A stretch of 64,000 bases of DNA from positions 2,315 to 66,314 of the forward strand of contig CAYNRJ010000001.1 in assembly GCA_964399865.1 (NCBI GenBank). Direction: 5' to 3'. This stretch comes from an uncultured Candidatus Saccharibacteria bacterium (GTDB taxonomy: Bacteria > Patescibacteriota > Minisyncoccia > Phycocordibacterales > UBA2100). Below the pieces are notes generated by a model. That model did no database searches. It was not told the origin of the DNA and worked only from the letters and a program-made list of their open reading frames with translations. Positions 3,001-53,899 of the stretch are shown here, in pieces. Position 1 is the stretch's first letter. Each line of letters begins with the position of its first letter. Both the position numbers and the translations under genes were made by a program.

Positions 3001-6000
3001 TATTACAACGTAAGTCTCCAGGAGCTCGTCGTCGATAACTCCTCGTTCCTCCGTCGTAACAACTTTGCATTTAATGTGGCAAGCGCTGATGCCGCCGCTC
3101 CACAGAGTGACGCTTCTGGTCCGGTCCTCACGAGAGCTGAAGCTCTTTCGGACAGAGTCTATCTTCCTTGGGGTCGTATTAATCCTACAACAGCGTCAGG
3201 AAGTACAGGATATTACTTTGGTACAACAACAATTGCTCATCCGCCAATTCCGCAAGCGCAGGCAACGACGAGTACAATTGTCATTGAACGGCCTAACAAA
3301 ACGTTCGTGATTATTGCTTCTCTTACGACTCCAGCCGCAAACGCTGCTCTGTATGATCCGAACACGCAGACGTTCACATCTCAGTCTGGAAGTAATATTC
3401 CAACCGCCGCGAATGGTCCTGGAGGCTTTGCGCTGAAACTCCCTAGCGGCAAGTTCCTAGTTGTTCTCGGAAATAATACTGTAACCACGAACTTCTACGA
3501 TCCTATTACGAATACCTTTAGCGCCGGGCCAGATCTTACTGTCGCGGCAAACCTTGGTGCAATCGCGATTCCGAATGCCGATGGAACGTACACCATTACC
3601 CACGGTGCTGGTGCTACAACATCGTCAATATTCGATCCAATACGCTACACGACGCAAAGAATGGCAACTGGCCCTACACAAACAACAGGCACTGCCTGCG
3701 GTGCTGCGGCTATACCGCTTCGTAACGGAAATTACAAGATTATCGTTGGTGCTGCAGACGGGGCAGCTGCAGCAGCAACAACGATGAACTATGATCCGCG
3801 CGCGAAAGTGTTTATTGCAGGTACAAATATGGTTACAAACGCCGTTGGCTGTGGATCGCAGGTCTTCCAAAGGGCAGACGGATTCTGGGAAGTGACTGGC
3901 GGCGGTACGACGTCAGGTGCAGGTACGCTCGTCACCAACATCATTAACCCAGACTCTGGTCAGACATCCATTGGTGCTCCGATGACTACTAACACCGCTG
4001 GAAAGGGTCAACTTCTCATTCCAAGACCTGACGGCACATTCTTACTTATCAGCGGTAACAACACAGTCAACACCAACATCATCATTCCGTATGGTGTCGG
4101 ACCTGCAGCATCTGCGGTCTCAGGCGTATCACAGCTCGGCGTTGCTCCAATTGGTCCTCCGCTTAACTTAGCTGTTGGTAATGGCTCTGTTGCCTTCCAA
4201 AGACCGGATGGTAAATTCGTTATCATTAACGGAAATGCAACAAGCAGCACACAGCTCATTGACGTTGGATGGTATCCGGACGGGCAGTATCTTTCTGAGC
4301 AGATTCAAATTCCTGCGCTCCCAGCAAACGCTGTACTTAACTGGAAGCAGACACCAGATAACTTTGTCTCAATGCGTGTGAGAGTTGCCTCATCACAGGC
4401 AAATCTCGCAACCTCGACATTTATTACTGTCGGGAAGCCTGGAACCAGTATCGCTAATGCGGGTGGCGAGACGTGGGCACAGATAGAAATTAACTTCCGC
4501 CGCGACTTCCCTGCATATAGTGGCGCAAAAGATAGCGTGTATGGAGGTTCCAGCAACAACGTCTATCCGTACCGCAATATCTCAACTCCGTCAGTATTTC
4601 AATTCCAGCTCAGTAATGGCCAGGATCTCCTCACACTCCAGACGAACGGTCGTAATCTGATGCGAGTTACATCTGATGGAAACATCTACTCTGCCGCCAA
4701 CGGTGGATTCTATAGTGGTGGTGCTGACTTGGCGGAAAATTACACTTCCACACAGACGCTCGTTGCTGGTGAGGTCGTGATGATCGATCCATCGAACGCA
4801 CAGGGTGTCATTCGCGCGACTGGTCAGTATCAAAATACGATACTCGGCGTTGTTTCGACTGAGCCAGGCTTCATTGCCGGCGCATTTACTGAAAATTCCT
4901 ACCCAATCGGTCTTATCGGTCGTGTACCTGTGAAGATCTCAACCGAGAATGGCCCAATTCGCTCAGGTGACATCCTCACTTCTGCGTCGATTTCTGGTTA
5001 TGCAATGCGCGCAACACAAGCTGGCCGCTCCCTTGGTAAGGCACTCGAGAATTTCGATGAGAGTACGGCGACCCCATGTCCTGCCGAGGGGCTCGGGAAT
5101 GTCGAATCTACAAAATGCGGAACGATCATGATGTTCGTTAACCTAGTCGATTACCTTGGTTCGCCAATAGAGCTAATGATGGATGAGGCAGGATTCTCAA
5201 TAGACGAGCCAGTACTAGCTTCCGAGGTTTCTGCGGACGAGGACGTACTCGAGGGCCTAGCGCTCGTCGCAGAGGCTCCGTCCGCTGACGAAAAGGCTGC
5301 CGCACGGAGAGCGCGCATACTCGCGTTCCTCCAGAACCTGAAAGAGCAGCGGGGAGCAATGGGCATAAGTTCTGAGATATTCACTGATCGCATTAGTTCT
5401 GCGTTCGAGATTGTCTCGCCACAGCTAACGACGGACACGCTTTCCGCAAATACGATCGCCGGGGTCTCAGGTGGTGTATCAGTCGCACTTGCTACAGGTA
5501 CACAATTCGCGATTATCAATAAAGACGCGTCGGGAAGCGCCTCTTCAACACCAGTAGCATCGTTTGATGCTTCTGGAAACCTATTTATCGGCGGTGATCT
5601 CGTCATTTTTGGTCGACCGTACTTTACAACTGACACTGCGGGCTTTGCTGTCGTGAAGGCGGGGAGTTCAAAAGTTGAAGTTATATTCGACCGAGAATAT
5701 CTCGAGCAGCCAATTGTAAACGCAAACATCTCGCTCGACGCTCTCCCTGACGAAGCGCAAGCGGCTGCTGCTGCGGAAGCAATCTTTTCGGATGATATCC
5801 GTTACCTTGTCACGGAAAAGAGCGCAAAAGGCTTCACGGTGCTTCTCAACAAACCGGCTTCTAAAGACATTCAGTTTAGTTGGATCGCTCTCGCGGTGAA
5901 GGGAGCTAAGACGTTCCAGTCAGCTGCTCCAGAAGGCGTTGATGTCGAAAACCCAGAACTTCCTGTTGAACCACAAGAATCTCCGGTGGAAGAAAACGAG

Positions 6001-6483
6001 GGTGGAGGCGAGTCGGAGCAGTCGGTCGAGGAGGAAATTGCGGAGGAGGAAACAGGGGGCTCTGGAGATGCGCCCCCACAAGTGACGGTGATAGGAGAGA
6101 GTCCTGTACGTATTGAAATAGGAACGGGGTATTCCGATCAGGGGGCGCTCGTTTCCGATGACCATGATACTGGGATCGGTCTCACGACGTTTGTAAACGG
6201 AGCGTTTTCCCTCGCAGTGCAATTGGACACCTCAACAACGACTTCATACGAGATCAAGTATCGCGCAACGGATTCAGCAGGGAACGTGACAGAAAAGACT
6301 CGCATTGTAGAAGTATATGAACCCGAAATACCAGTTTCTGAGGCGCAACCAGAATCTCTACCAGAGCCTGAGTCAGAACCAGCTCCTGAGCCGGAAGTAG
6401 TCGTAGGCTCAGCTCCTCAGTCAGAGTCCGCGGTAGAAGCTGAACCTAGCCCAGAACTTTCCTCTGAAATTGTAGAAGAGTAA
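1..6483 (+). CDS. Giant surface protein, 5'-partial. The frame is open from nt 1 (…YFAGSVGIGTTSPAYALDIAG…), so the gene starts upstream of the window. Mosaic: N-terminal tail-fibre-like G/N/T/S-rich repeats; about 12 repeats of ~45 aa carrying (I/F)YDP motifs (beta-propeller/Kelch-like); an internal phage tail-fibre intramolecular-chaperone / peptidase S74-like domain; a DUF5011-like Ig domain; an acidic P/E-rich tail.
   Basis: No stop codon in frame 1 from nt 1. Repeats such as NVAVGYDSLLANTTGSRNVASGF..DNVAIGNGAL; periodic TQIYDPIGDVF / SYIYNPNTDTFTSHG / ALYDPNTQTFTSQSG / TNFYDPITNTFSAGP / SIFDPIRYTTQ / MNYDPRAKVFIAG; the segment GGADLAENYTSTQTLVAGEVVMIDPS…LGVVSTEPGFIAG…IGRVPVKISTENGPIRSGDILTSASISGYAMRAT; the segment PQVTVIGESPVRIEIGTGYSDQGALVSDDHDTGI…YRATDSAGNVTEKTRIVEVYE; and a C-terminal run PESLPEPESEPAPEPE. 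Confidence 0.75.
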   Translation, partial: RNAYFAGSVGIGTTSPAYALDIAGFININEYSGYKQNGSTILFATTTTGLLGVGINALASAISTSTDATSATYSVAVGENALRYATSSDFNTAVGWSALRGSSSATANNSGERNVAVGYDSLLANTTGSRNVASGFTSMLNNTTGSDNVAIGNGALMIATSSSNNIAIGTEALISLRTSSVNDLEGSIAIGYDAGASVVYGGANIFIGHLAGDNLTGGSNNIIMGYSIDAPSATLSGQLNIGNIIFGTGVDSTGTTIDTNALIGIGTSTPWGRLSVTNVGTEPSFVVQDEASPDNSPFIIDATGNVGIGTTSPFAKLSVVGQTVGEYFTATSTARVSTFPYASTTAITVSGTASSTLLVVSGLNAADCDVKASVNGVFSCGTDAGGAGASLQGSYDAGDTIETSDANPIVITETAAAASSHNLLELAPNPAAGGTFSGSALQITMDATDANAYAGNGLRIVVDQSQVASTAYPILIEDDAGVDIFAVAENGGLTINGANSDVVRSSTADFALGTVGAGLSNANGQLSMSNGTVLTSSNGIITTGSQPSVDAAVSTGALSIAIANGKYLVIRGGGTNAMSIYDSVAGTFTASSRTLNGTAGGGTLALPRPGGTYRILHGSGSQTTTTLIDPQGNMYLGFGTTTAMNAAVATGTVAFRRPDGRFLIANGQGAGTTQIYDPIGDVFVAGPTNSGGVTWGAGALVIPMASSTSGISSRALFVTGGAAGTTQIYNSSDGSVSGIGPRGSFTVGPPLGTGCEINNWGSVAIGRPDGKYVILSKINASAVFDPILGTMTCRTSNGPGVALGVGAHAIPLQNGTFLIIVGSGSTASYIYNPNTDTFTSHGTALSVIGDGAHSILRQDGTWQILAGGTTTPTTTNNFDTGLPMAGSATRYTSDDISTTALNLSSTLKWVADAQTAMVGNVNATSSLQILVRTAVNSGGCTAPLDAATDREIRNSGDLIGAGSTDNCIRITVNMSRPIPKRIIDERGTFTGNGSTVTALDYYNVSLQELVVDNSSFLRRNNFAFNVASADAAAPQSDASGPVLTRAEALSDRVYLPWGRINPTTASGSTGYYFGTTTIAHPPIPQAQATTSTIVIERPNKTFVIIASLTTPAANAALYDPNTQTFTSQSGSNIPTAANGPGGFALKLPSGKFLVVLGNNTVTTNFYDPITNTFSAGPDLTVAANLGAIAIPNADGTYTITHGAGATTSSIFDPIRYTTQRMATGPTQTTGTACGAAAIPLRNGNYKIIVGAADGAAAAATTMNYDPRAKVFIAGTNMVTNAVGCGSQVFQRADGFWEVTGGGTTSGAGTLVTNIINPDSGQTSIGAPMTTNTAGKGQLLIPRPDGTFLLISGNNTVNTNIIIPYGVGPAASAVSGVSQLGVAPIGPPLNLAVGNGSVAFQRPDGKFVIINGNATSSTQLIDVGWYPDGQYLSEQIQIPALPANAVLNWKQTPDNFVSMRVRVASSQANLATSTFITVGKPGTSIANAGGETWAQIEINFRRDFPAYSGAKDSVYGGSSNNVYPYRNISTPSVFQFQLSNGQDLLTLQTNGRNLMRVTSDGNIYSAANGGFYSGGADLAENYTSTQTLVAGEVVMIDPSNAQGVIRATGQYQNTILGVVSTEPGFIAGAFTENSYPIGLIGRVPVKISTENGPIRSGDILTSASISGYAMRATQAGRSLGKALENFDESTATPCPAEGLGNVESTKCGTIMMFVNLVDYLGSPIELMMDEAGFSIDEPVLASEVSADEDVLEGLALVAEAPSADEKAAARRARILAFLQNLKEQRGAMGISSEIFTDRISSAFEIVSPQLTTDTLSANTIAGVSGGVSVALATGTQFAIINKDASGSASSTPVASFDASGNLFIGGDLVIFGRPYFTTDTAGFAVVKAGSSKVEVIFDREYLEQPIVNANISLDALPDEAQAAAAAEAIFSDDIRYLVTEKSAKGFTVLLNKPASKDIQFSWIALAVKGAKTFQSAAPEGVDVENPELPVEPQESPVEENEGGGESEQSVEEEIAEEETGGSGDAPPQVTVIGESPVRIEIGTGYSDQGALVSDDHDTGIGLTTFVNGAFSLAVQLDTSTTTSYEIKYRATDSAGNVTEKTRIVEVYEPEIPVSEAQPESLPEPESEPAPEPEVVVGSAPQSESAVEAEPSPELSSEIVEE

Positions 6484-6504: not shown

Positions 6505-7506
6505 TTATCGATACTGCGAGTCTATTTTTTTATAAACAAATTCTGAAATGTCGGCGACGGCTCTCTCGAGAGTAGGCACTTCTTCGCCCCGAGTCATGAT
6601 GCAGAGAAGGTAGGGGTGTTTGGGATAATAGACTATACCGCAGTCGTGCAAATGACGCTCACCATCGTTGATTTGTCTTTCGCCGAATTTATGAGCTACG
6701 AGAATTTTGTCTGGCACACCCTTACGCAAGCCTTCGGTGAAATCGATTTTCGAAAGTAGCGACAGTGCCTGCTCTGAATGTGCTTGGGAGAGGAATGACG
6801 CGTTATAAAGGATTCTAAAAAAAGCGGCGTATTGTTTTACGGAAAGAGCTGAACTCGGATCGTTTAGTACATTTGCGTCGACATCCAATAGATCGTACAG
6901 GTGTCTAATATCATCTCCTGGGAGATCCGTAAGTAGGAGAAATAACGACTCGTTGTCGGAGTAGATGATCATTCTCTCGATAAGCTCACTTACCGTATAT
7001 GCTTTCCCGACTTCAAGAGTCTCCTCTGGCAAAATCGTTTGCTCGACAGGTGACGCGCGTTTTTCTTGAAATGTAATTTCTTTCTGCAAGATGCTCGGGT
7101 TGTCCTCAGCGGCGCGGAAAAATGCCATCATGACCGGTACCTTCAATAAGCTCGCAGGAATGAATGGATCATCTTGTTGAATACCAAAGGTCGGGCCGTT
7201 GTTCAGGTCACGGAAATATACTGCTATCTCACTCGCGGAAGTTTTTTTCTCTAGAGAGGTTACTAGTTTTTCAAGGTCCGACCGGAAGTTTATTTTTTCT
7301 GCGTCGATCGTTCCTTGTGCAATCTCGCATTCAAGGAGTGGATTGGTAAGCACACCTTCACCTGAGCGGACCTGTGCTGATGTGCTGGAGTGCGGTGTGG
7401 ACTTGTGAAGGTTTGCGTATCCGATCGCTCCGAGGGCTGCTCCGAGCGCAAGCGTTACGGTGAAGGAAAATACCCTACGCATGTGCCACCATGCTAGCAC
7501 AGGCAA
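6505..7506 (-). CDS. Secreted serine hydrolase, class A beta-lactamase / PBP-like. An alternative start at the internal Met (MRRVFSF…, about nt 7482) gives a cleaner signal peptide.
   Basis: N-terminal hydrophobic signal; SxxK (ASLLK), SDN (YSDNES) and a KTG-like (HKFGE) motif in the class A order. Confidence 0.5.
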   Translation of the reverse strand: MPVLAWWHMRRVFSFTVTLALGAALGAIGYANLHKSTPHSSTSAQVRSGEGVLTNPLLECEIAQGTIDAEKINFRSDLEKLVTSLEKKTSASEIAVYFRDLNNGPTFGIQQDDPFIPASLLKVPVMMAFFRAAEDNPSILQKEITFQEKRASPVEQTILPEETLEVGKAYTVSELIERMIIYSDNESLFLLLTDLPGDDIRHLYDLLDVDANVLNDPSSALSVKQYAAFFRILYNASFLSQAHSEQALSLLSKIDFTEGLRKGVPDKILVAHKFGERQINDGERHLHDCGIVYYPKHPYLLCIMTRGEEVPTLERAVADISEFVYKKIDSQYR

Positions 7507-24732: not shown

Positions 24733-24791
24733 ACGCTACTAAGCGCGGTAGGGGGCGACAAAGCCTAGAGAATACGGTATATTGAGGCTAT

Positions 24792-24810
24792 CTCCGGTAC
24801 GGAGTTTTTA
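24792..24810 (+). terminator. Hairpin ctccg-gta-cggag plus T5; it ends 5 nt before the typA ATG and its 3' arm contains the GGAG that is the likely typA RBS.
   Basis: tctccggtacggagtttttattttATG. Confidence 0.35.
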
Positions 24811-24814
24811 TTTT

Positions 24815-26596
24815 ATGGAAATTCGAAACATAGCGATTATTGCTCACGTCGACCACGGAAAGACAACACTTACGGATGCGCTTTTGAAGCAAACGGGAGT
24901 TGGTGAGGAAGGAGTATCAATGGACTCAAACGATCTTGAGCGTGAGCGCGGTATTACGATTTATTCCAAAAACGCCTCGATTCCATACAAGGGCACAAAG
25001 ATAAACCTTGTAGATACTCCTGGGCACTCCGACTTCGGTTCAGAAGTGGAGCGCGTGCTCCGATCGATCGATTGCGTGCTCCTCGTGGTTGATGCTCAGG
25101 AAGGCCCCATGCCTCAGACACGATTCGTTCTTAAGAAATCACTGGAACTCGGCATTAAACCGATCGTCGTTATAAATAAAATCGACAAGCCGGCGGCTGA
25201 CCCAGCTCGCGCTGAAGAGCAGGTTCTCGAACTCTTCCTCGAGCTCGGTGCTTCAAATGATCAGTCAAACTTCCCTGTCGTATACGCGATCGGCAAACAG
25301 GGTATCGCAAAAATTAAATTGACCGACGATTCAAAAGATTTGACCCCGCTTCTTGAGACTATTCTCACTCACGTGCCTCCTGCAAATAAAGAAGCTGTTG
25401 GGGTTCCTGCGCGCCTACAACCATTCAACCTTGCGTACGATAACTTCCTCGGTCGTCTTGCGATCGTTCGTGTATACGACGGCACTCTGAAGACGGGGGA
25501 TTCTGTATTCGTCAAAAAGCCAACAGGCGAGGCACGTCCCGGGAAGATCACAAAGATGTATACCTTTAAGGGTCTACAGAAAGTAGAAAGTACCGAAGTA
25601 GGTAGCGGAGACATCGCGCTTATCGCAGGTCTTCCAGATATTTATATCGGAGAAACAGTGACGACTGACCAAAATGCTGAAGCGCTCCCAGCTATTGCCA
25701 TCGATGAGCCAACAATTACGCTCAACTTCTTGGTTAACAACTCGCCTTTTGCTGGTCGCGAAGGTAAGTTCGTCACATCACGCCAGATTCGCGAGCGCTT
25801 GGAAAAAGAGCTCGAAGTGAACGTCGGTCTTCGCGTTGCATTTGATAGTGGAGATACATTTAAAGTATCAGGCCGTGGCGAACTCCATGTCGCGATCTTG
25901 CTCGAAAACATGCGTCGTGAGGGATACGAAATGCAGGTCTCTCAGCCGCAGGTAATTTTCCGTGAAGAGAATGGAAAGAAGCTAGAGCCTTTCGAGGAAG
26001 TCATCGTTGATACTCCACAGGAATACCAGGGCTCCATTATGGAGAGACTCGGTACTCGTAAATTTGTCATGAAAGATATGAAGATGCACGAAAATCAGGT
26101 GCGTCTCATTTTTGAAGGTCCTACTCGTGGACTCCTTGGCTACCGCAACCAATTCATTCTCGACACTCGAGGTGAAGGAATACTCTCTTCTCGCGTTATC
26201 GGTTTCCAGCCGCATGCGGGCGAGATAAAGAAGCGTGCAGTTGGCTCGATGATCTCTATGGCTGCCGGCAAGGCGCTCGGCTTCTCACTCTGGAATCTTC
26301 AGGAACGCGGTGTTCTCTACATCGGACCTGCAGTTGAAGTGTATGAGGGTATGGTTATCGGCAACACGTCAAAGGGAGAGGAAATGTCCGTAAACCCTAC
26401 AAAAGGAAAACAGCTCACCAACATGCGAGCATCTGGTTCTGACGAAGCAATCCAGCTTATCCCACCATACGAACTCACTATCGAAAAAGGTCTTGAAGTC
26501 ATGTCTGAGGACGAATACTTGGAGATCACTCCTCTCAGCGTGCGCCTACGTAAGCAGAAGTTGTCTGAAACCGAGCGTTCAAAAGCGAAAAGATAA
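24815..26596 (+). CDS. typA: GTP-binding protein TypA/BipA; start moved to the internal Met (MEIRNIAIIAHVDHGKTTL).
   Basis: G-domain AHVDHGKTTL, DTPGH, NKID; length and C-terminal domain typical of BipA. Confidence 0.9.
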   Translation: MEIRNIAIIAHVDHGKTTLTDALLKQTGVGEEGVSMDSNDLERERGITIYSKNASIPYKGTKINLVDTPGHSDFGSEVERVLRSIDCVLLVVDAQEGPMPQTRFVLKKSLELGIKPIVVINKIDKPAADPARAEEQVLELFLELGASNDQSNFPVVYAIGKQGIAKIKLTDDSKDLTPLLETILTHVPPANKEAVGVPARLQPFNLAYDNFLGRLAIVRVYDGTLKTGDSVFVKKPTGEARPGKITKMYTFKGLQKVESTEVGSGDIALIAGLPDIYIGETVTTDQNAEALPAIAIDEPTITLNFLVNNSPFAGREGKFVTSRQIRERLEKELEVNVGLRVAFDSGDTFKVSGRGELHVAILLENMRREGYEMQVSQPQVIFREENGKKLEPFEEVIVDTPQEYQGSIMERLGTRKFVMKDMKMHENQVRLIFEGPTRGLLGYRNQFILDTRGEGILSSRVIGFQPHAGEIKKRAVGSMISMAAGKALGFSLWNLQERGVLYIGPAVEVYEGMVIGNTSKGEEMSVNPTKGKQLTNMRASGSDEAIQLIPPYELTIEKGLEVMSEDEYLEITPLSVRLRKQKLSETERSKAKR

Positions 26597-26792
26597 GGGG
26601 AACGAAACTCTTTTTCGCCATATGTTCTCCGGAGCACGGATATTTTTCTGCTGAAAAATTCCTCGAGCTCGCGCCGCCGCGCTCGCTGGGCTCCGTCAAA
26701 CACATGCCGAAGCGAGTTTCTAAAGGGAGGAGCTGGGGGAAATACAAAACCGGCAGGGACCGGCACGCCTCGTTAAATGGTATGATTTTCAT

Positions 26793-39764: not shown

Positions 39765-41185
39765 AGAAGTTTCTCTCTCGTTATCACCCACGTGCGATAC
39801 GCTCACTCGTATATATGCTTCAGGCGAGTGAGTACGGGGTCCGTGAGTATCTACACTGGCTTCACCGCACTTCCGATTTTCTTGATGTGGAACGCAGAAA
39901 GCAGCTTACTTTTACCAAAAAGGCGTTGATACTTCTCGGTATAGGTTGGGGGATCGTATTGGCGGTCATTGTTGCGATTGTTTTTGCATTCATATTATTT
40001 CCTCAGCCGTGGAACATCGCAGCCTCAATACTTCTGGTGTTGCTTACGCCCTTTATGCTCTCGTATGGGCTTGCGCTCGCGGTATGGAAGCTACGCCTCT
40101 TACAATTTCCAATTGAATACATTTTTACAAAGCTCGCCCATCTTTCCCTAAAGCGCCATAAGGGAGTGAAAATTGCGATAGCAGGAAGCTATGGCAAAAC
40201 AAGTATGCGGGAGATCCTCAAGACTGTTCTTTCAGAAGGGAAGAAAGTGGCCGCTCCTCCTGGGAGCTACAACACACCACTAGCTGTCGCGAAATTTGTG
40301 CGCGGATTAAAGGGGGACGAAGACGTTCTTATATTTGAAATCGGAGAATATTATCCCGGAGATGTGCGAAAGCTTGCGCGGATAGTCTGTCCCGAATGGG
40401 GCATCATTACGGGGATCAATGAAGCGCACCTCGAGAAATTCAAAACACTCGAACGTACCGCCAGAACTATTTTTGAGCTGGCCTACGAAGTGAAGCCGAC
40501 GCATTTATACGTAAATGACGAAAGTACGCTTGTGCGCAAACATGCCACGATCGGAAACATTCTCTACACACGTCTCGGAACAGAATCATGGCTCGTGAGT
40601 GACCCTACGACGGGACTTACCGGAACTACGTTTAAGATCTCAAATGGACCCGAGGTAATACAAGGCGAGTCGAAACTTCTCGGACTTCATATGCTCGGGC
40701 CCCTTTCCGTTGCCGTCGATTTAGCTAAGCGACTCGGACTCACAACTGAGCAGATCCAGAAAGGCATTGCGAAAACGAAGCCGTTCGACCATCGCTTGGA
40801 GGTCAAACAGTGGGAAGGTGGTGTTACATTTCTTGATGATAGTTATAACGGTAATCCAGATGGCGTAAAGGCGGTTATTTCGTTCCTCTCAGGGCTCAGT
40901 GCGCGGAGATTTTATGTGACTCCCGGACTAGTAGAGGCTGGTTCTCATGTGCGAGAAGTGCACGAAGAAATAGGCAAACAGCTCGCGAAAGCGAATATTG
41001 AAAAAGTGGTTCTTATCCGCAATTCTGTTACGCCTCATATTCGGAATGGCCTTAAGGAAGCTAGCTTCAAGGGTGATCTACTCGAATATCACGACATGCC
41101 TACAGCTCTTAATGCCTTGCGCTCTCTAACGCTCCCGGGAGATGTTGTATTGATCCAGAACGACTGGCCCGACCAGTATAAGTGA
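39761..41185 (+). CDS. murF: Mur ligase family protein (MurF-like UDP-MurNAc-peptide ligase) with an unusual N-terminal ~115-aa membrane domain (2 TM).
   Basis: IAIAGSYGKTSMREIL P-loop, Mur ligase middle and C-terminal pattern; TMs LILLGIGWGIVLAVIVAIVFAFILF and ILLVLLTPFMLSYGLALAVW. Confidence 0.6.
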   Translation: MKKFLSRYHPRAIRSLVYMLQASEYGVREYLHWLHRTSDFLDVERRKQLTFTKKALILLGIGWGIVLAVIVAIVFAFILFPQPWNIAASILLVLLTPFMLSYGLALAVWKLRLLQFPIEYIFTKLAHLSLKRHKGVKIAIAGSYGKTSMREILKTVLSEGKKVAAPPGSYNTPLAVAKFVRGLKGDEDVLIFEIGEYYPGDVRKLARIVCPEWGIITGINEAHLEKFKTLERTARTIFELAYEVKPTHLYVNDESTLVRKHATIGNILYTRLGTESWLVSDPTTGLTGTTFKISNGPEVIQGESKLLGLHMLGPLSVAVDLAKRLGLTTEQIQKGIAKTKPFDHRLEVKQWEGGVTFLDDSYNGNPDGVKAVISFLSGLSARRFYVTPGLVEAGSHVREVHEEIGKQLAKANIEKVVLIRNSVTPHIRNGLKEASFKGDLLEYHDMPTALNALRSLTLPGDVVLIQNDWPDQYK

Positions 41186-41330
41186 GGGTAGCGACGCTCG
41201 CCGACACTGCACTCTTCGGGTCGCTATCTGACCGTGCTCTGTCAGCGCTCGGGCTTGACGCCGATGCGTCTGCGCAGACCCTCAGAGCGCACCGTCGACT
41301 CGCTTTGCATGGGATGGAATCTAGAGAAAT
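41186..41330. repeat. GC-rich multi-hairpin spacer between murF-like and ddl; it shares the 15-mer ctgcgcagaccctc(a/g) and other short motifs with the element after groEL.
   Basis: Hairpins gcgac…gtcgc, ctgac-cgtgctct-gtcag, gacgc-cgat-gcgtc, tgcgc-agaccctcaga-gcgca read directly. Confidence 0.4.
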
Positions 41331-42553: not shown

Positions 42554-43264
42554 ATGTCCGAAAAGAGAAAATTCGCGGTATTTGATGTCGACGGGACCAT
42601 TTTTCGATCAAGCCTATTAATCCAAGTTGTAGATAAGCTTATCGATACTGGGGCGTTCCCTCCTGAAGCTCAAAAAATGTATGAGCGAGAACATGAAAAA
42701 TGGCTTGATCGGGAAGGTGATTACGAAGAGTACGTAGATGGTGTGGTACGAACCTTTCGCCAGCATTTGAAGGGGATTCACTACAGTGTGCTCGCCGATA
42801 CTGCAGATGCCATGGTCGAGAGACAATGGAAAAGAACATACCGCTACACTCGCGACCTTTTAAAGAGTTTAAAAGAAAGGGGTTATTTTCTCCTTGCAGT
42901 CTCGCATTCCCCCAAAACTGTCCTCGATAAATTTTGCCCACGACTTGGATTCGATAAAGCCTACGGCATTGTGTATGAGATCGGGCCGCAGGAGTGCTTC
43001 ACAGGAGGGATCGTCGACGAACATCTCATTATGAACAAGGCGAATATCGTTCGTCGTGCCGTTGAAAAAGAGGGGCTCACGCTCTCCCATTCTATCGGAG
43101 TTGGAGATACGGAATCTGATGTTCCATTTCTAGAGCTAGTAGCAAAGCCACTTTGCTTTAACCCAAACAAAAAACTCTACCGTTATGCAAAACGCATGGG
43201 TTGGAAAGTGATAGTTGAACGGAAAGATGTCGTATACGAGCTTGGGAAGAGTGATTTGGTATAG
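42554..43264 (+). CDS. HAD-superfamily hydrolase (HAD-IB / phosphoserine-phosphatase-like).
   Basis: FAVFDVDGTIF motif I, GVGDTESD motif IV. Confidence 0.65.
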   Translation: MSEKRKFAVFDVDGTIFRSSLLIQVVDKLIDTGAFPPEAQKMYEREHEKWLDREGDYEEYVDGVVRTFRQHLKGIHYSVLADTADAMVERQWKRTYRYTRDLLKSLKERGYFLLAVSHSPKTVLDKFCPRLGFDKAYGIVYEIGPQECFTGGIVDEHLIMNKANIVRRAVEKEGLTLSHSIGVGDTESDVPFLELVAKPLCFNPNKKLYRYAKRMGWKVIVERKDVVYELGKSDLV

Positions 43265-43282: not shown

Positions 43283-43393
43283 TCGCGACAGCCAGTGCAT
43301 ATTTTGCCGTCGCTGTCTGTGCCTGCTGGCACAGCGCTGCCTCTCGGCTCGTCAGCCTGCGAGACACGGCAAAATACGCACCGGTTGCCACTC
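43283..43393. ncRNA. Copy A of a repeated GC-rich structured element (candidate structured RNA): a long closing helix around two internal hairpins. It is preceded by a G8 homopolymer directly after the stop codon.
   Basis: Core 43297-43379: gcatattttgccg | gtcgctgtctg tgcc-tgct-ggca cagcg | ctgcc tctcg ggct-cgtc-agcc tg cgaga | cac cggcaaaatacgc. Homologous to 51303-51383 with compensatory changes. Confidence 0.45.
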
Positions 43394-49631: not shown

Positions 49632-51281
49632 ATGGCAAAACAAGTAATCTTTGATCAAGACGTACGAAATGCACTGAAGCGCGGCATAGATATCGTCGCA
49701 GGCGCAGTGCGCGTGACGATCGGCCCTCGCGGAAGGAATGTTGCGATAGGAAAGTCATGGGGCGGGCCCACGATCACCAATGATGGTGTTTCAATTGCAA
49801 AAGAAATCACGCTCGCGGACAAATTTGAAGACATGGGCGCTTCCATTGTCAAGGAAGTTGCAACAAAGACGAATGACAAAGCAGGAGACGGCACCACAAC
49901 AGCGGTCGTCCTCACTCAGGCGATCATTCACGAGGGTTTGAAGCGCACAGCACTCGGTGCGAACGCGATGATGGTGCGTCGTGGTATCGAAGCAGCAGCA
50001 AAGGACGCCGTTGAAGAGCTGAAGAAAATGGCGAAGCCGATAAAGACAAAGGAGGAAAAGCGTCAGATCGCTACAATTTCTGCGGAATCATCTGAGCTCG
50101 GCATCACTATCGCTGACATCGTAGACAAGGTCGGCAAGGACGGCGTGGTGACTGTCGAAGAATCGCAGTCCATCGGTATTGAATCTGACTACGTCGAAGG
50201 AATGGAGTTCGACAAGGGGTATGTGTCTGCATATCTCATCACGAACGCAGAGCGAATGGAGGCAGAAATGAAAGATGCACCGATCCTCATCACTGACAAG
50301 AAGATTTCTACGATTAAAGATATTCTTCCGCTCCTCGAGAAGGTCGCGCAGTCTGGAAAGAAGGATCTCTGCATCATCGCAGATGATGTTGATGGAGAAG
50401 CTCTTGCAACTCTCATCGTCAACAAACTTCGTGGTGTATTTAATGTGCTCGCGATCAAAGCGCCAGGATACGGCGACCGCAAGAAAGAGATGCTCGCGGA
50501 TATCGCAGTCACTGTTGGGGCATCGGTTGTGTCCGAAGACCTTGGTGTGAAGCTTGAGAATACAGAACTTGCAATGCTCGGGAAGGCAAGTCGTGTCGTT
50601 GCTACAAAGGATTCGACTATTATCGTCGGAGGTAAGGGAAAGAAAGGAGATATCGACAAGCGCGTATCGCAGCTTAAGAAGCAACTCGAAAATACGGACT
50701 CGAAATTCGACAAAGAAAAATTGGAGGAGCGAGTTGCGAAGCTCTCGGGTGGCGTTGCAGTCATTCGTGTAGGAGCTGCGACTGAGACAGAGATGAAATA
50801 TTTGAAAGACAAGATCGAGGACGCGGTCAATGCAACGAAAGCCGCAATTTCCGAGGGTATCGTCGCTGGAGGTGGAACTGCGCTCGCAAAAGTCGCTGAC
50901 AAACTATCAAAGAAAGTAGATCCAAATGCTCACGACGAGCACACGATAGGCTACCGGATACTTGTATCCGCGCTCACCGCGCCATTTCTCCAGATTGTAA
51001 AGAATTCCGGTCGTGAAGATGGCGCAGTGCTCCTTCGCGATGTTGTCGCAAAGGGCGGCGCATGGGGATTTGATGCAGCTGCAGAAAGTGTCGAAGGAAA
51101 GATCGTCGACATGTATGAAGCTGGCATCATCGATCCGGTGAAAGTAACTCGTAGTGGTGTTGAAAATGCAGCATCTGCCGCTGCAGTACTTCTCACTACA
51201 GAAGCTGCCATCGCAGATATTCCAGAAGAGAAGAAGGCTCCAGTAGGAGGTGGTATGGGGATGGGAGGGGACATGGAGTAG
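49632..51281 (+). CDS. groEL: Chaperonin GroEL.
   Basis: Canonical sequence throughout, C-terminal GGM repeat (GGGMGMGGDME). Confidence 0.97.
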   Translation: MAKQVIFDQDVRNALKRGIDIVAGAVRVTIGPRGRNVAIGKSWGGPTITNDGVSIAKEITLADKFEDMGASIVKEVATKTNDKAGDGTTTAVVLTQAIIHEGLKRTALGANAMMVRRGIEAAAKDAVEELKKMAKPIKTKEEKRQIATISAESSELGITIADIVDKVGKDGVVTVEESQSIGIESDYVEGMEFDKGYVSAYLITNAERMEAEMKDAPILITDKKISTIKDILPLLEKVAQSGKKDLCIIADDVDGEALATLIVNKLRGVFNVLAIKAPGYGDRKKEMLADIAVTVGASVVSEDLGVKLENTELAMLGKASRVVATKDSTIIVGGKGKKGDIDKRVSQLKKQLENTDSKFDKEKLEERVAKLSGGVAVIRVGAATETEMKYLKDKIEDAVNATKAAISEGIVAGGGTALAKVADKLSKKVDPNAHDEHTIGYRILVSALTAPFLQIVKNSGREDGAVLLRDVVAKGGAWGFDAAAESVEGKIVDMYEAGIIDPVKVTRSGVENAASAAAVLLTTEAAIADIPEEKKAPVGGGMGMGGDME

Positions 51282-51295
51282 AGGGCCACTCGGCT

Positions 51296-51392
51296 TGCGA
51301 TCAGCATTTCTGCGGTCGCTGTCTGCCGCTGGTGCGGCAGCGCTGCCTCTCGGCCCGCCGGCCTGCGAGACACCGCATAAACGCTGATCGCA
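51296..51392. ncRNA. Copy B of the repeated structured element, immediately 3' of groEL.
   Basis: Closing helix ttgcgatcagcatttctgcgg / ccgcataaacgctgatcgcaa; hairpin cgctg tctg ccgc-tggt-gcgg cagcg; hairpin tctcg ggcc-cgcc-ggcc tg cgaga. Confidence 0.45.
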
Positions 51393-51466
51393 ACCCTCGC
51401 TTTAGGTTGAAAAAATTACATCGTCGTGCCTGCGCAGACCCTCGAAAAACAATTACTCCCTCGCTA

Positions 51467-51515
51467 GAAGTTTTAAAAAGTTGAAGCTCCGGCCGCAGCG
51501 TGCGCCCGGAGCTTC
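51467..51515 (-). terminator. Terminator for the minus-strand gene 51534..51851 (10-bp stem gaagctccgg / ccggagcttc; U-run on the minus side).
   Basis: agttttaaaaagttgaagctccggccgcagcgtgcgcccggagcttc. Confidence 0.55.
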
Positions 51516-51533
51516 GAGTCGCGAAGAGTGTTC

Positions 51534-51851
51534 TCACGACAGGTGACCTGCTTCATCGGCGATGACTCTTCTGGCCATGTCTTCACAGCCCATGTCGAAT
51601 AAGCCGAGATCGTCTGCGTCATAGCGCGAAAGGTACTCTGCCGCTTCAGCGAGCCATTCGAGTGGCGATATCCCGTCCTTTTCGCCGACAGGGATCATTC
51701 GATCTCCACTTTCTGTGCGGAAGACGTACAGGATTTGAATGAGAGGCCTACCCCGCTCCTCCTTGGTAACGAGTGCATCTAATAGTCGGACCGCACCCAC
51801 GCAGCCCGCATCGCTGAACAGTTTTCTTGCCCGCTCTACTTCTGGAGCCAT
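51534..51851 (-). CDS. Hypothetical 105-aa cytoplasmic protein.
   Basis: ORF only. Confidence 0.35.
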   Translation of the reverse strand: MAPEVERARKLFSDAGCVGAVRLLDALVTKEERGRPLIQILYVFRTESGDRMIPVGEKDGISPLEWLAEAAEYLSRYDADDLGLFDMGCEDMARRVIADEAGHLS

Positions 51852-53814: not shown

Positions 53815-53899
53815 GGAGGGTTCGCATAGTGGTCTAGTGCACACGCTTGGAAAGCGTGCGTGCCGCAAGGCACCGAGAGTTCGAATCTCTCACCCTCCG
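53815..53899 (+). tRNA. tRNA-Ser (anticodon GGA), class II with a long variable arm; no encoded CCA; followed by a T8 run.
   Basis: GGAGGGT-TC-GCA-TAGTGGTCTAG-TGC-A-CACGC-TTGGAAA-GCGTG-CGTGCCGCAAGGCACC-GAGAG-TTCGAAT-CTCTC-ACCCTCC-G folded by hand. Confidence 0.85.

Follow-up and report, generated by a model that had tools for sequence, protein, structure and literature searches.

What is the folded sequence that lies directly behind groEL in this DNA, and does it act on groEL? From the letters of the window, by which we mean the whole 64,000-nucleotide stretch that was analyzed, it had been predicted to be one of two copies of a structured element, possibly with a groEL-specific role as a small RNA, a stability element or a terminator-like insulator. 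We arrived at a different answer. This sequence, copy B of the element, is probably one insertion of a non-autonomous, mobile palindromic DNA repeat that resembles the Rickettsia palindromic elements (RPEs), and its effect on groEL mRNA would be incidental at most. The repeat is not a dedicated groEL regulator. It belongs to a multi-copy, dispersed family with a branched conserved core and complementary, copy-specific arms. A given site may hold an intact copy, a decayed one or none, and copies can be inverted in place.

Copy B and the other copies in the window

The structured repeat behind groEL is real. A covariance model matched copy B (Table 1), and folding is strong in both strands, with -59 kcal/mol (z = -5.2) for the + strand and -70.6 kcal/mol (z = -6.9) for the - strand. 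The fold consists of a long outer stem that closes a three-way junction with two GC-rich inner hairpins. As predicted, the repeat sits in the groEL 3' untranslated region, where it starts 14 nt 3' of the TAG stop codon (51279..51281). The 11-bp closing helix that had been described is indeed perfect (ttgcgatcagc, 51295..51305, pairing with gctgatcgcaa, 51383..51393), but on each side it ends one base outside the 51296..51392 first given.

A second copy of the structure had been placed at 43283..43393, and copy B indeed has its core in common with that sequence, copy A (Table 1). The two copies share GTCGCTGTCTG-[hairpin]-CAGCGCTGCCTCTCGGC-[loop]-GCCTGCGAGACAC, with identical junction and lower-helix sequences, while their helix tips and outer stems differ through compensating changes. 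One 17-mer is common to both and has no other exact occurrence in the window, although allowing up to 3 mismatches would give an expectation of only 0.16 matches. A covariance-model search, the check proposed with the original prediction, recovered copies A and B and also copies C and E. All four matches to this model (R1) lie on the + strand, each directly behind a + strand gene. Together with a partial copy D, they form a decay series of two intact (A, B), two degenerate (C, E) and one partial copy (D). The fold of copy C is no longer significant (z = -1.1) and copy D does not fold (z = +1.9). Copy E has drifted in sequence and has kept the three-way junction fold (z = -3.8).

Table 1. Copies of the repeat, parts of copy B and neighboring features in the window
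Feature	Position	Strand	Remarks
Copy E, diverged	26613..26712	+	34.8 bits, E = 8e-7; directly 3' of typA/bipA stop (24782..26596)
Copy C, degenerate	41199..41300	+	35.9 bits, E = 4e-7; murF-ddl spacer, same GCTCG and CTCGCT flanks
Copy A, intact	43288..43388	+	103.9 bits; directly 3' of TAG stop of HAD-hydrolase gene (42554..43264)
groEL (context)	49632..51281	+	ORF; Pfam Cpn60_TCP1, E = 8e-64; 81% identity to L114 GroEL
5' flank of copy B	51282..51292	+	G-rich spacer and CTCG (51289..51292); from sequence and flank table
Copy B	51294..51394	+	Covariance-model match, 104.3 bits, E = 3.5e-25
5' arm, outer stem of copy B	51295..51316	+	Alignment columns 2-23; distal 11 bp (51295..51305) and T-rich proximal part
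Conserved core of copy B	51317..51371	+	Three-way junction, P2 and P3
Hairpin P2 of copy B	51318..51346	+	Loop TGGT
Hairpin P3 of copy B	51347..51369	+	Loop CGCC
3' arm, outer stem of copy B	51372..51393	+	Columns 79-100; pairs with 51295..51316 except one A.C and one C.T
3' flank of copy B	51396..51415	+	CTCGCT and ttAGGTTGaaaaaa
Copy D, partial, decayed	51420..51480	+	Remnant of core 3' half cgtcgtgCCTGCGcAGACcC, then CTCGCT (51460..51465) and tail AAGTTttAAAAA
Terminator-like hairpin of convergent gene	51483..51515	-	Not part of the repeat; U-run = + strand 51470..51482
Convergent ORF (context)	51534..51851	-	105 aa, no Pfam family
tRNA	53815..53899	+	85 nt, long variable arm; sole Rfam match in the window

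The CTCG on the 5' side of copy B and the CTCGCT on its 3' side make up a direct repeat. The further GC-rich sequence that had been noted downstream exists, and it now resolves into a conserved 3' flank (CTCGCT..AGGTTG) followed by copy D. The 15-mer ctgcgcagaccctcg lies inside copy D at 51430..51444. It had been reported as shared with the murF-ddl spacer; the two are related and not identical, as the counterpart at 41270..41284 matches in 14 of 15 positions and differs in one base (...ctcA). The 15-mer is the decayed end of such repeat copies, and its murF-ddl match is the equivalent stretch of copy C. Two further loci (L081 and L040) likewise have an intact copy beside a stop codon and a decayed one after it.

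No U-run follows copy B, where the sequence after 51393 is cccucgcuuuagguug, and a terminator scan gave no match there; the repeat was rejected as an intrinsic terminator. Our Rfam search, which takes in small ribozymes such as hammerhead and twister, returned a single match in the whole window at the gathering threshold, a tRNA, and none at the repeats; at E <= 10 on 51200..51560 the best matches were at chance level. The terminator predicted farther downstream fared better. The hairpin at 51483..51515, which AACUUUUUAAAAC follows on the - strand, plausibly serves the convergent ORF as an intrinsic terminator. A simple terminator scan missed it, and Rfam gave a weak terminator-like 'sar' match at this position.

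A dispersed family between and within genes

Few known genomes are as small and streamlined as those of CPR/Patescibacteria, which are thought to be poor in repetitive DNA. Scanning one genome per species for the exact pattern GCTGTCTG-N10-16-CAGCGCTGCCTC gave at least 116 loci. The second half of the core, which lies outside the search pattern, was present in about 100 of the matches listed. All complete-core copies listed came from Parcubacteria/Patescibacteria MAGs, on up to 6 contigs per genome, and these MAGs are labeled Nomura-, Kaiser-, Vogel- or Zambryskiibacteria, Paceibacterota, Parcubacteria, Patescibacteria or 'uncultured Saccharibacteria'. The few matches in other phyla are due to chance and do not have the second half of the core. 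The specific pattern had no match in 2.9 million viral contigs and none in plasmid and phage collections. A looser DNA pattern gave only chance matches in the viral contigs, for example to phage Ogr-like genes. As far as sampled, the family is confined to Parcubacteria-type CPR bacteria. The literature that we covered, which is incomplete and does not prove novelty, held no description of such a palindromic, MITE or structured-RNA family in CPR/Patescibacteria, and these palindromic repeats of ~100-130 bp, scattered through small Parcubacteria genomes, are apparently undescribed.

An ungapped alignment of 92 copies gave the consensus GGGTC-GCTGTCTG-NNNN-TGCT-NNNN-CAGCGCTGCCTCTCGGCyCGTCrGCCTGCGAGACACCC. 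The arms around this core (20-30 nt) differ in sequence in every copy and keep their mutual pairing, and conservation drops outward from the center of the repeat. The core is conserved across genomes of 30-58% GC, including loop and junction bases that pairing does not explain, so a sequence-specific partner must exist. It is much better conserved than the arms or the host genes (UvrD, 66-78% amino-acid identity). Part of this apparent ultra-conservation arises because the copies were chosen by an exact pattern, and unbiased copies score 79-96 bits. The conservation left after this selection effect still requires a conserved partner.

Several contigs end within or beside the repeat (L052, 1-85; L096, 1-139; L116, 1-76), and two further copies lie near contig ends (L090 and L101), as expected if a dispersed repeat breaks short-read assembly. 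A variant with an extra GC-rich hairpin of ~35-40 nt in P3 (..CCTCcccgcccgctttcgccagagcgaagcgatggcgggcaggtc..) was seen at four loci (L044, L058, L096 and L106) and is still in-frame in L058 and L106.

The setting of the copies follows genomic GC content. In genomes of 47-58% GC, including that of the window, they are intergenic and lie directly behind stop codons. A same-strand ORF precedes 28 of the 38 intergenic copies, and the arm starts a few bases from the stop codon. The 5' flank in a Kaiserbacteria-like subfamily runs from TAG through 1 to 14 mostly G-rich nucleotides and (G)CTCG to the arm, and related genomes share the 3' flank consensus CTCGCTnAAGyTGGrAAA. Of 24 listed copies, 17 have TAG as the stop codon ahead of them, compared with a background of 23-36%. 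Behind murF in the window (41183..41200), the TGA stop codon is followed by GGGTAGCGACGCTCG; a TAG is present there and is not used, which suggests that the TAG belongs to the 5' flank of the repeat. The CTCG direct repeat on both sides occurs in the Kaiserbacteria-like subfamily only and is absent from low-GC genomes and from in-gene sites.

Parcubacteria bacterium GW2011_GWA2_51_10 (L114), whose GroEL is 81% identical to that of the window, carries the repeat at the same place behind groEL. The flanks are the same (TAG..CTCG and CTCGCT), the arms are unrelated and the helix tips are compensated. A canonical + strand terminator comes after the repeat, then a convergent ORF (6526..6852, 108 aa). 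Since this terminator lies downstream of the repeat, the repeat is inside the groEL transcript there. The shared position may have been inherited from an ancestor, or the same target may have been used more than once. That position would also fit, as would the intergenic sense bias, a selected role as RNA: a cis-acting 3'-UTR module (a REP-like stabilizer, a terminator or insulator, or an sRNA precursor) reused behind many genes, with the in-gene copies as by-products. Such a module would account for copies that start a few bases from a stop codon and are mostly in sense (28/38 intergenic, 4/4 in the window), and for the very stable fold and strong covariation. It would also fit the absence of any flipped core within CTCG...CTCGCT flanks, compared with ~40% flipped among in-gene copies. 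We return to this reading with the covariation.

Where genomic GC content is 30-44%, nearly every copy lies within a long ORF and leaves its frame unbroken. Among the matches listed, 49 in-gene copies lie in real ORFs, in either orientation, at no fewer than 12 sites in at least 9 genes. Pfam confirmed UvrD/PcrA and tRNA-guanine transglycosylase (Tgt) as hosts, and Fmt, UvrB, IleRS, TsaD, peptide deformylase and others were judged from conserved motifs. Only two reading modes occur, GSLS-x6-ALPLGSSACETP (29 copies) and, in the reverse orientation, GVSQADGPRGSA-x6-DSDP (20 copies). Most of the remaining frames are likewise free of stops in most copies (+0, for example, is open in 95%), but no real gene uses them; the peptides that they would encode are rich in Arg and Cys. 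In-gene copies have no target duplication and no conserved termini. A census of host proteins by peptide gave no candidates in a word-index search, and an exhaustive search returned two unrelated repetitive proteins. One contig (L050) holds three copies within 2.2 kb (3947-4048, 5010-5109 and 6009-6110), two of them in one UvrD gene; the third, AT-rich and decayed, lies just downstream of that gene.

Could the in-gene copies be removed from the RNA, as a mini-intron or as a spacer excised by RNase III like an rRNA intervening sequence, and never be translated? RNase III would accept the long perfect stem as a substrate, and insertions are known in the rRNA genes of CPR bacteria. However, all 49 in-gene copies keep the frame and use two of six reading modes, though most of the others are open in most copies. 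A spliced element would be free of any constraint on frame, so the preserved frame and mode argue against excision and for translation of the insert. The repeat is also not in rRNA, and its intergenic copies have nothing to splice. We consider excision highly improbable. An rRNA intervening sequence in the strict sense was ruled out, as there is no rRNA at the loci.

Turnover of the repeat and selection on DNA or RNA

The UvrD orthologs recovered via the pattern all carry the repeat, in a sample that is biased toward pattern-matching copies. An unbiased sample was assembled by collecting metagenome loci with the C-terminal 302 residues of UvrD only. In this sample, relatives with 72-84% identity differ widely in the loop between ..KILEILD and SEIAILYRANFQS. 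It can be empty (16-27 residues), hold an intact copy in the + (L145, L151) or the - orientation (L147, L148, L150, L154), or hold a decayed copy (L156, 48.9 bits). It can also hold what appears to be an arms-only remnant (L155) or a member of two other insert families (..ERTLGSRDGDGQRKFSAENF.. and ..FSQVLGSPR..). Kaiserbacteria UvrD has an empty loop. Compensated changes occur in the unbiased copies (79-96 bits) even in the stem that had seemed invariant because the pattern required it. A single ancient insertion under purifying selection is ruled out by the empty, decayed and otherwise-filled sites in this sample.

The UvrD loop is an insertion hot spot that takes inserts of different kinds. 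The 27-residue loop of L155 (~2420-2500) has DNA that resembles two arms without a core, and it looks as if the core had been deleted and the arms left behind. The second in-frame insert family, ..ERTLGSR(D/N)GDGQRKFSAENF(R/C)GE.., occupies the UvrD loop just upstream of ..AILYRANFQS in L146, L149, L153 (at ~2390-2500) and L083, and its DNA contains the hairpin AGAAAATTTTCAGCAGAAAATTTT. The third family, ..FSQVLGSPR.. with a variable Pro/Ser-rich sequence, was seen in the same UvrD loop in L149, L157, L163 and L089.

Two further lines of evidence concern inversion and exchange. Two loci (L051 and L092) share one Fmt site, at which they carry the repeat in opposite orientations. Because the inner arm segments, which are asymmetric, have turned around together with the core, this is an in-place inversion between the arms. 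Copies from separate loci of the same genome have an arm identity of 0.68, and copies from different genomes 0.59 (p = 2e-8); for the helix tips, the values are 0.82 and 0.66. Two copies from one genome (L108 and L125, MFLP01) have arms that are 96% identical in unrelated flanks. Their helix tips are wholly different and fully compensated (CGGT/ACCG and TGCG/CGCA; GCGC/GCGC and GGCC/GGCC), and like arms with unlike tips suggest mosaic exchange between copies. The states of the UvrD loop, the inversion and the likeness within genomes indicate that copies turn over and decay, and that they proliferate within genomes, undergo gene conversion or both. A repeat family behaves in this way, and a fixed regulatory site does not. 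Mobility is inferred from comparisons between species; among near-identical strains, we saw no insertion polymorphism.

Covariation bears on whether DNA or RNA is the selected form. With the structure defined here, 89% of pairing cells pair in the 92 copies, compared with 68% in column shuffles and 35-48% with slid partners. Both-sided changes occur in 29 of 41 pairs, and in 21 of the 22 pairs of helix 1. The changes almost all lead from one Watson-Crick pair to another, and G.T accounts for ~1% of pairs in the helix tips. Counted in the + orientation, the ratio of A.C/C.A to G.T/T.G mismatches in the arms is 40:4 for intergenic copies, 39:10 for in-gene + copies and 10:5 for in-gene - copies. 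In 80 of 99 copies, the better fold is that of the reverse strand, which is the strand that tolerates wobble. Four points thus speak against selection on the sense RNA: the scarcity of G.U pairs, the A.C mismatches, the better fold of the reverse strand and the occurrence of both orientations within genes. Deamination of cytosines in the coding or leading strand would give the opposite mismatch asymmetry. Either it is the folding of the reverse strand that counts, or repair in forward-strand hairpins acts preferentially on G.T mismatches.

These observations weigh on the 3'-UTR RNA module introduced above. Its covariation should not be almost purely Watson-Crick, and 40 A.C/C.A against 4 G.T/T.G mismatches on the sense strand of intergenic arms is the reverse of what selection on sense RNA would leave. 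The antisense strand folds better, intact cores lie in both orientations within genes, copies are dispensable and decay, and the repeat has neither a U-run nor an Rfam family. We regard the module as unlikely, though the position of the L114 copy ahead of a canonical terminator, and hence within the mRNA, speaks for it.

The same data can be read as a DNA signal domesticated by the host, that is, a recombination, replication-priming or DNA-uptake-type site that is folded as a single strand or cruciform and read by a conserved Parcubacteria protein. Core loops and junction that are conserved beyond pairing in genomes of 30-58% GC would fit such a signal, as would covariation confined to Watson-Crick pairs and the strand-asymmetric mismatches that point to folding of one DNA strand. 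Orientation relative to transcription would not matter to it, and either orientation is tolerated in genes; copy E has kept its fold despite a drifted sequence. On the other hand, copies are lost or decayed at the same site without replacement. Their density is low and uneven, with 4 copies in the 64 kb of the window and ~7 extra in 745 kb of flanks. Unrelated insert families in the same UvrD loop look like tolerance of junk and not like placement of a signal, and no partner protein is known. A domesticated signal seems to us quite improbable.

We favor the mobile repeat. In the model that we propose, the repeat would spread as selfish DNA through a putative trans-acting enzyme that recognizes the core when it folds within one DNA strand. 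The subfamily of the window would insert next to the tetranucleotide CTCG, by the logic of IS200/IS605 and REP-RAYT systems, and insertion beside CTCG would explain both the CTCG direct repeat and the tandem young-then-old copies. Copies would survive only where they are harmless, either behind a stop codon or, in surface loops of proteins, in one of the two modes, which are stop-free and hydrophilic. Arms and helix tips may be kept complementary by palindrome correction or gene conversion at the DNA level and not by selection on RNA. Behind groEL, the repeat would be transcribed as part of the 3' UTR, where the great stability of its hairpin may hold up 3' exonucleases as a side effect. A REP-like effect of this kind on groEL mRNA decay is possible. 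The insertion chemistry is a guess, as the CTCG flanks occur in one subfamily only and the in-gene sites have neither duplication nor termini. ORF clustering identified no transposase or other candidate enzyme near the copies and nothing recurrent among 697 ORFs in flanks of 8 kb, and the 25 Pfam families listed, out of 125 with matches in 148 neighboring ORFs, were all housekeeping.

A bolder extension would have the core serve as the recognition site of a Parcubacteria-wide nucleic-acid machine, with the arms turning in-gene copies into flip-flop switches and the repeat being maintained and not junk. We rate this as rather unlikely. If such a machine existed, it would represent a new system for single-strand DNA transposition or recombination, or an RNA-binding system. 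If the switches did, UvrD, Tgt, Fmt, IleRS and other proteins would reversibly be given two alternative surface loops.

Taken together, the functional reading in the original prediction was partly supported. Its structural basis held, and an incidental effect on the transcript is possible. The proposals of a groEL-specific sRNA, stability element or terminator-like insulator are disfavored by the evidence from the family as a whole: the same repeat lies in-frame in unrelated housekeeping genes in either orientation, close relatives have it intact, decayed or not at all at a given site, G-U pairs stand at ~1%, the A.C mismatches weaken the sense fold and there is no U-run.

Significance and relation to known systems

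As a single locus, copy B is ordinary. Its importance lies in giving entry to an apparently unreported, CPR-wide family of protein-invading palindromes with a three-way-junction core. 'Protein-coding palindromes', which are mainly known from Rickettsia, would be extended to a second, very large group with reduced genomes. We know of no enzyme that moves RPEs, and the conserved single-strand structure described here could be used as bait, or for phylogenetic profiling, toward a mobilizing enzyme. For routine genomics, the repeat breaks MAG assemblies and adds 35-45 residues to phylogenetic marker proteins. It could also be mis-annotated as regulatory RNA, and the structure 3' of groEL should not be read as a groEL-specific regulator.

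We compared the repeat with known systems that combine short palindromes and mobility. Integron attC sites have conserved R''/R' core sites (RYYYAAC...GTTRRRY) at the foot of an imperfect hairpin and occur in cassette arrays. They were rejected, given that the stem bases of the repeat are not conserved, that it has no GTTRRRY and that its copies are scattered among and within housekeeping genes. The G+C-rich clusters and double-hairpin elements of fungal mitochondria are short and multi-hairpin, reside in AT-richer genomes, are intergenic and occasionally coding, and form tandem arrays at preferred targets. Our family is likewise made of short GC-rich multi-hairpins, in intergenic and coding positions and in tandem at preferred target sites. 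The fungal elements differ in being organellar, shorter and devoid of a long closing stem, and the relation is one of analogy only.

REPs are 20-40 nt long, have a conserved stem and a variable loop, and are not known to occur in-frame within genes. The present family resembles REP/REPIN-RAYT and IS200/IS605-derived elements in its extragenic hairpins behind stop codons, the conserved tetranucleotide beside the hairpin in one subfamily and the proposed folding of a single strand. Like these elements, it lacks the usual terminal inverted repeats, forms within-genome populations that co-evolve and may stabilize the mRNA upstream. A layout (CTCG-arm...arm-CTCG(CT)) with tandem young and old copies that would fit the IS200/IS605 type was found in this subfamily and is absent in low-GC genomes. 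Unlike REPs, the family shows the reverse pattern of conservation, with the core kept and the arms variable, and in-frame copies exist. The flanking ORFs also contain no RAYT or TnpA gene near the copies.

MITEs such as Correia, ERIC and RUP are described as small non-autonomous repeats that can form in-frame ORF fusions and affect neighboring transcripts (PMC10969869). In size, lack of autonomy and ability to fuse in-frame with ORFs, our family is similar. MITEs are further marked by conserved terminal inverted repeats, target-site duplications and a parent IS that can be recognized. Our family differs in that conserved terminal inverted repeats are absent, the arms being inverted but copy-specific, and in that flanking ORFs and flank comparison revealed no parent IS and no clear target-site duplication.

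According to the same source, RPEs (Ogata et al. 2000) are repeats of ~150 bp in several families; nearly half of the repeats lie in-frame within unrelated genes and encode a conserved peptide, and other copies are intergenic (PMC10969869). They belong to a reduced-genome lineage, and no transposase is known for them (PMC10969869). RPEs are the closest described phenomenon. Both groups consist of multi-copy palindromes of ~100-150 bp that are restricted to one lineage and occur in-frame in housekeeping ORFs with conserved peptides. Both come in several families, judging here by the two further insert peptides at the UvrD loop. The present family occurs in another phylum, so sequence homology to Rickettsia RPEs is unlikely, and the two are likened by their traits and not by sequence. 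What sets our family apart is a branched double-hairpin center that is conserved while the arms are copy-specific, the occurrence of both orientations at one site with two alternative peptides, and an almost purely extragenic life behind stop codons in GC-richer genomes.
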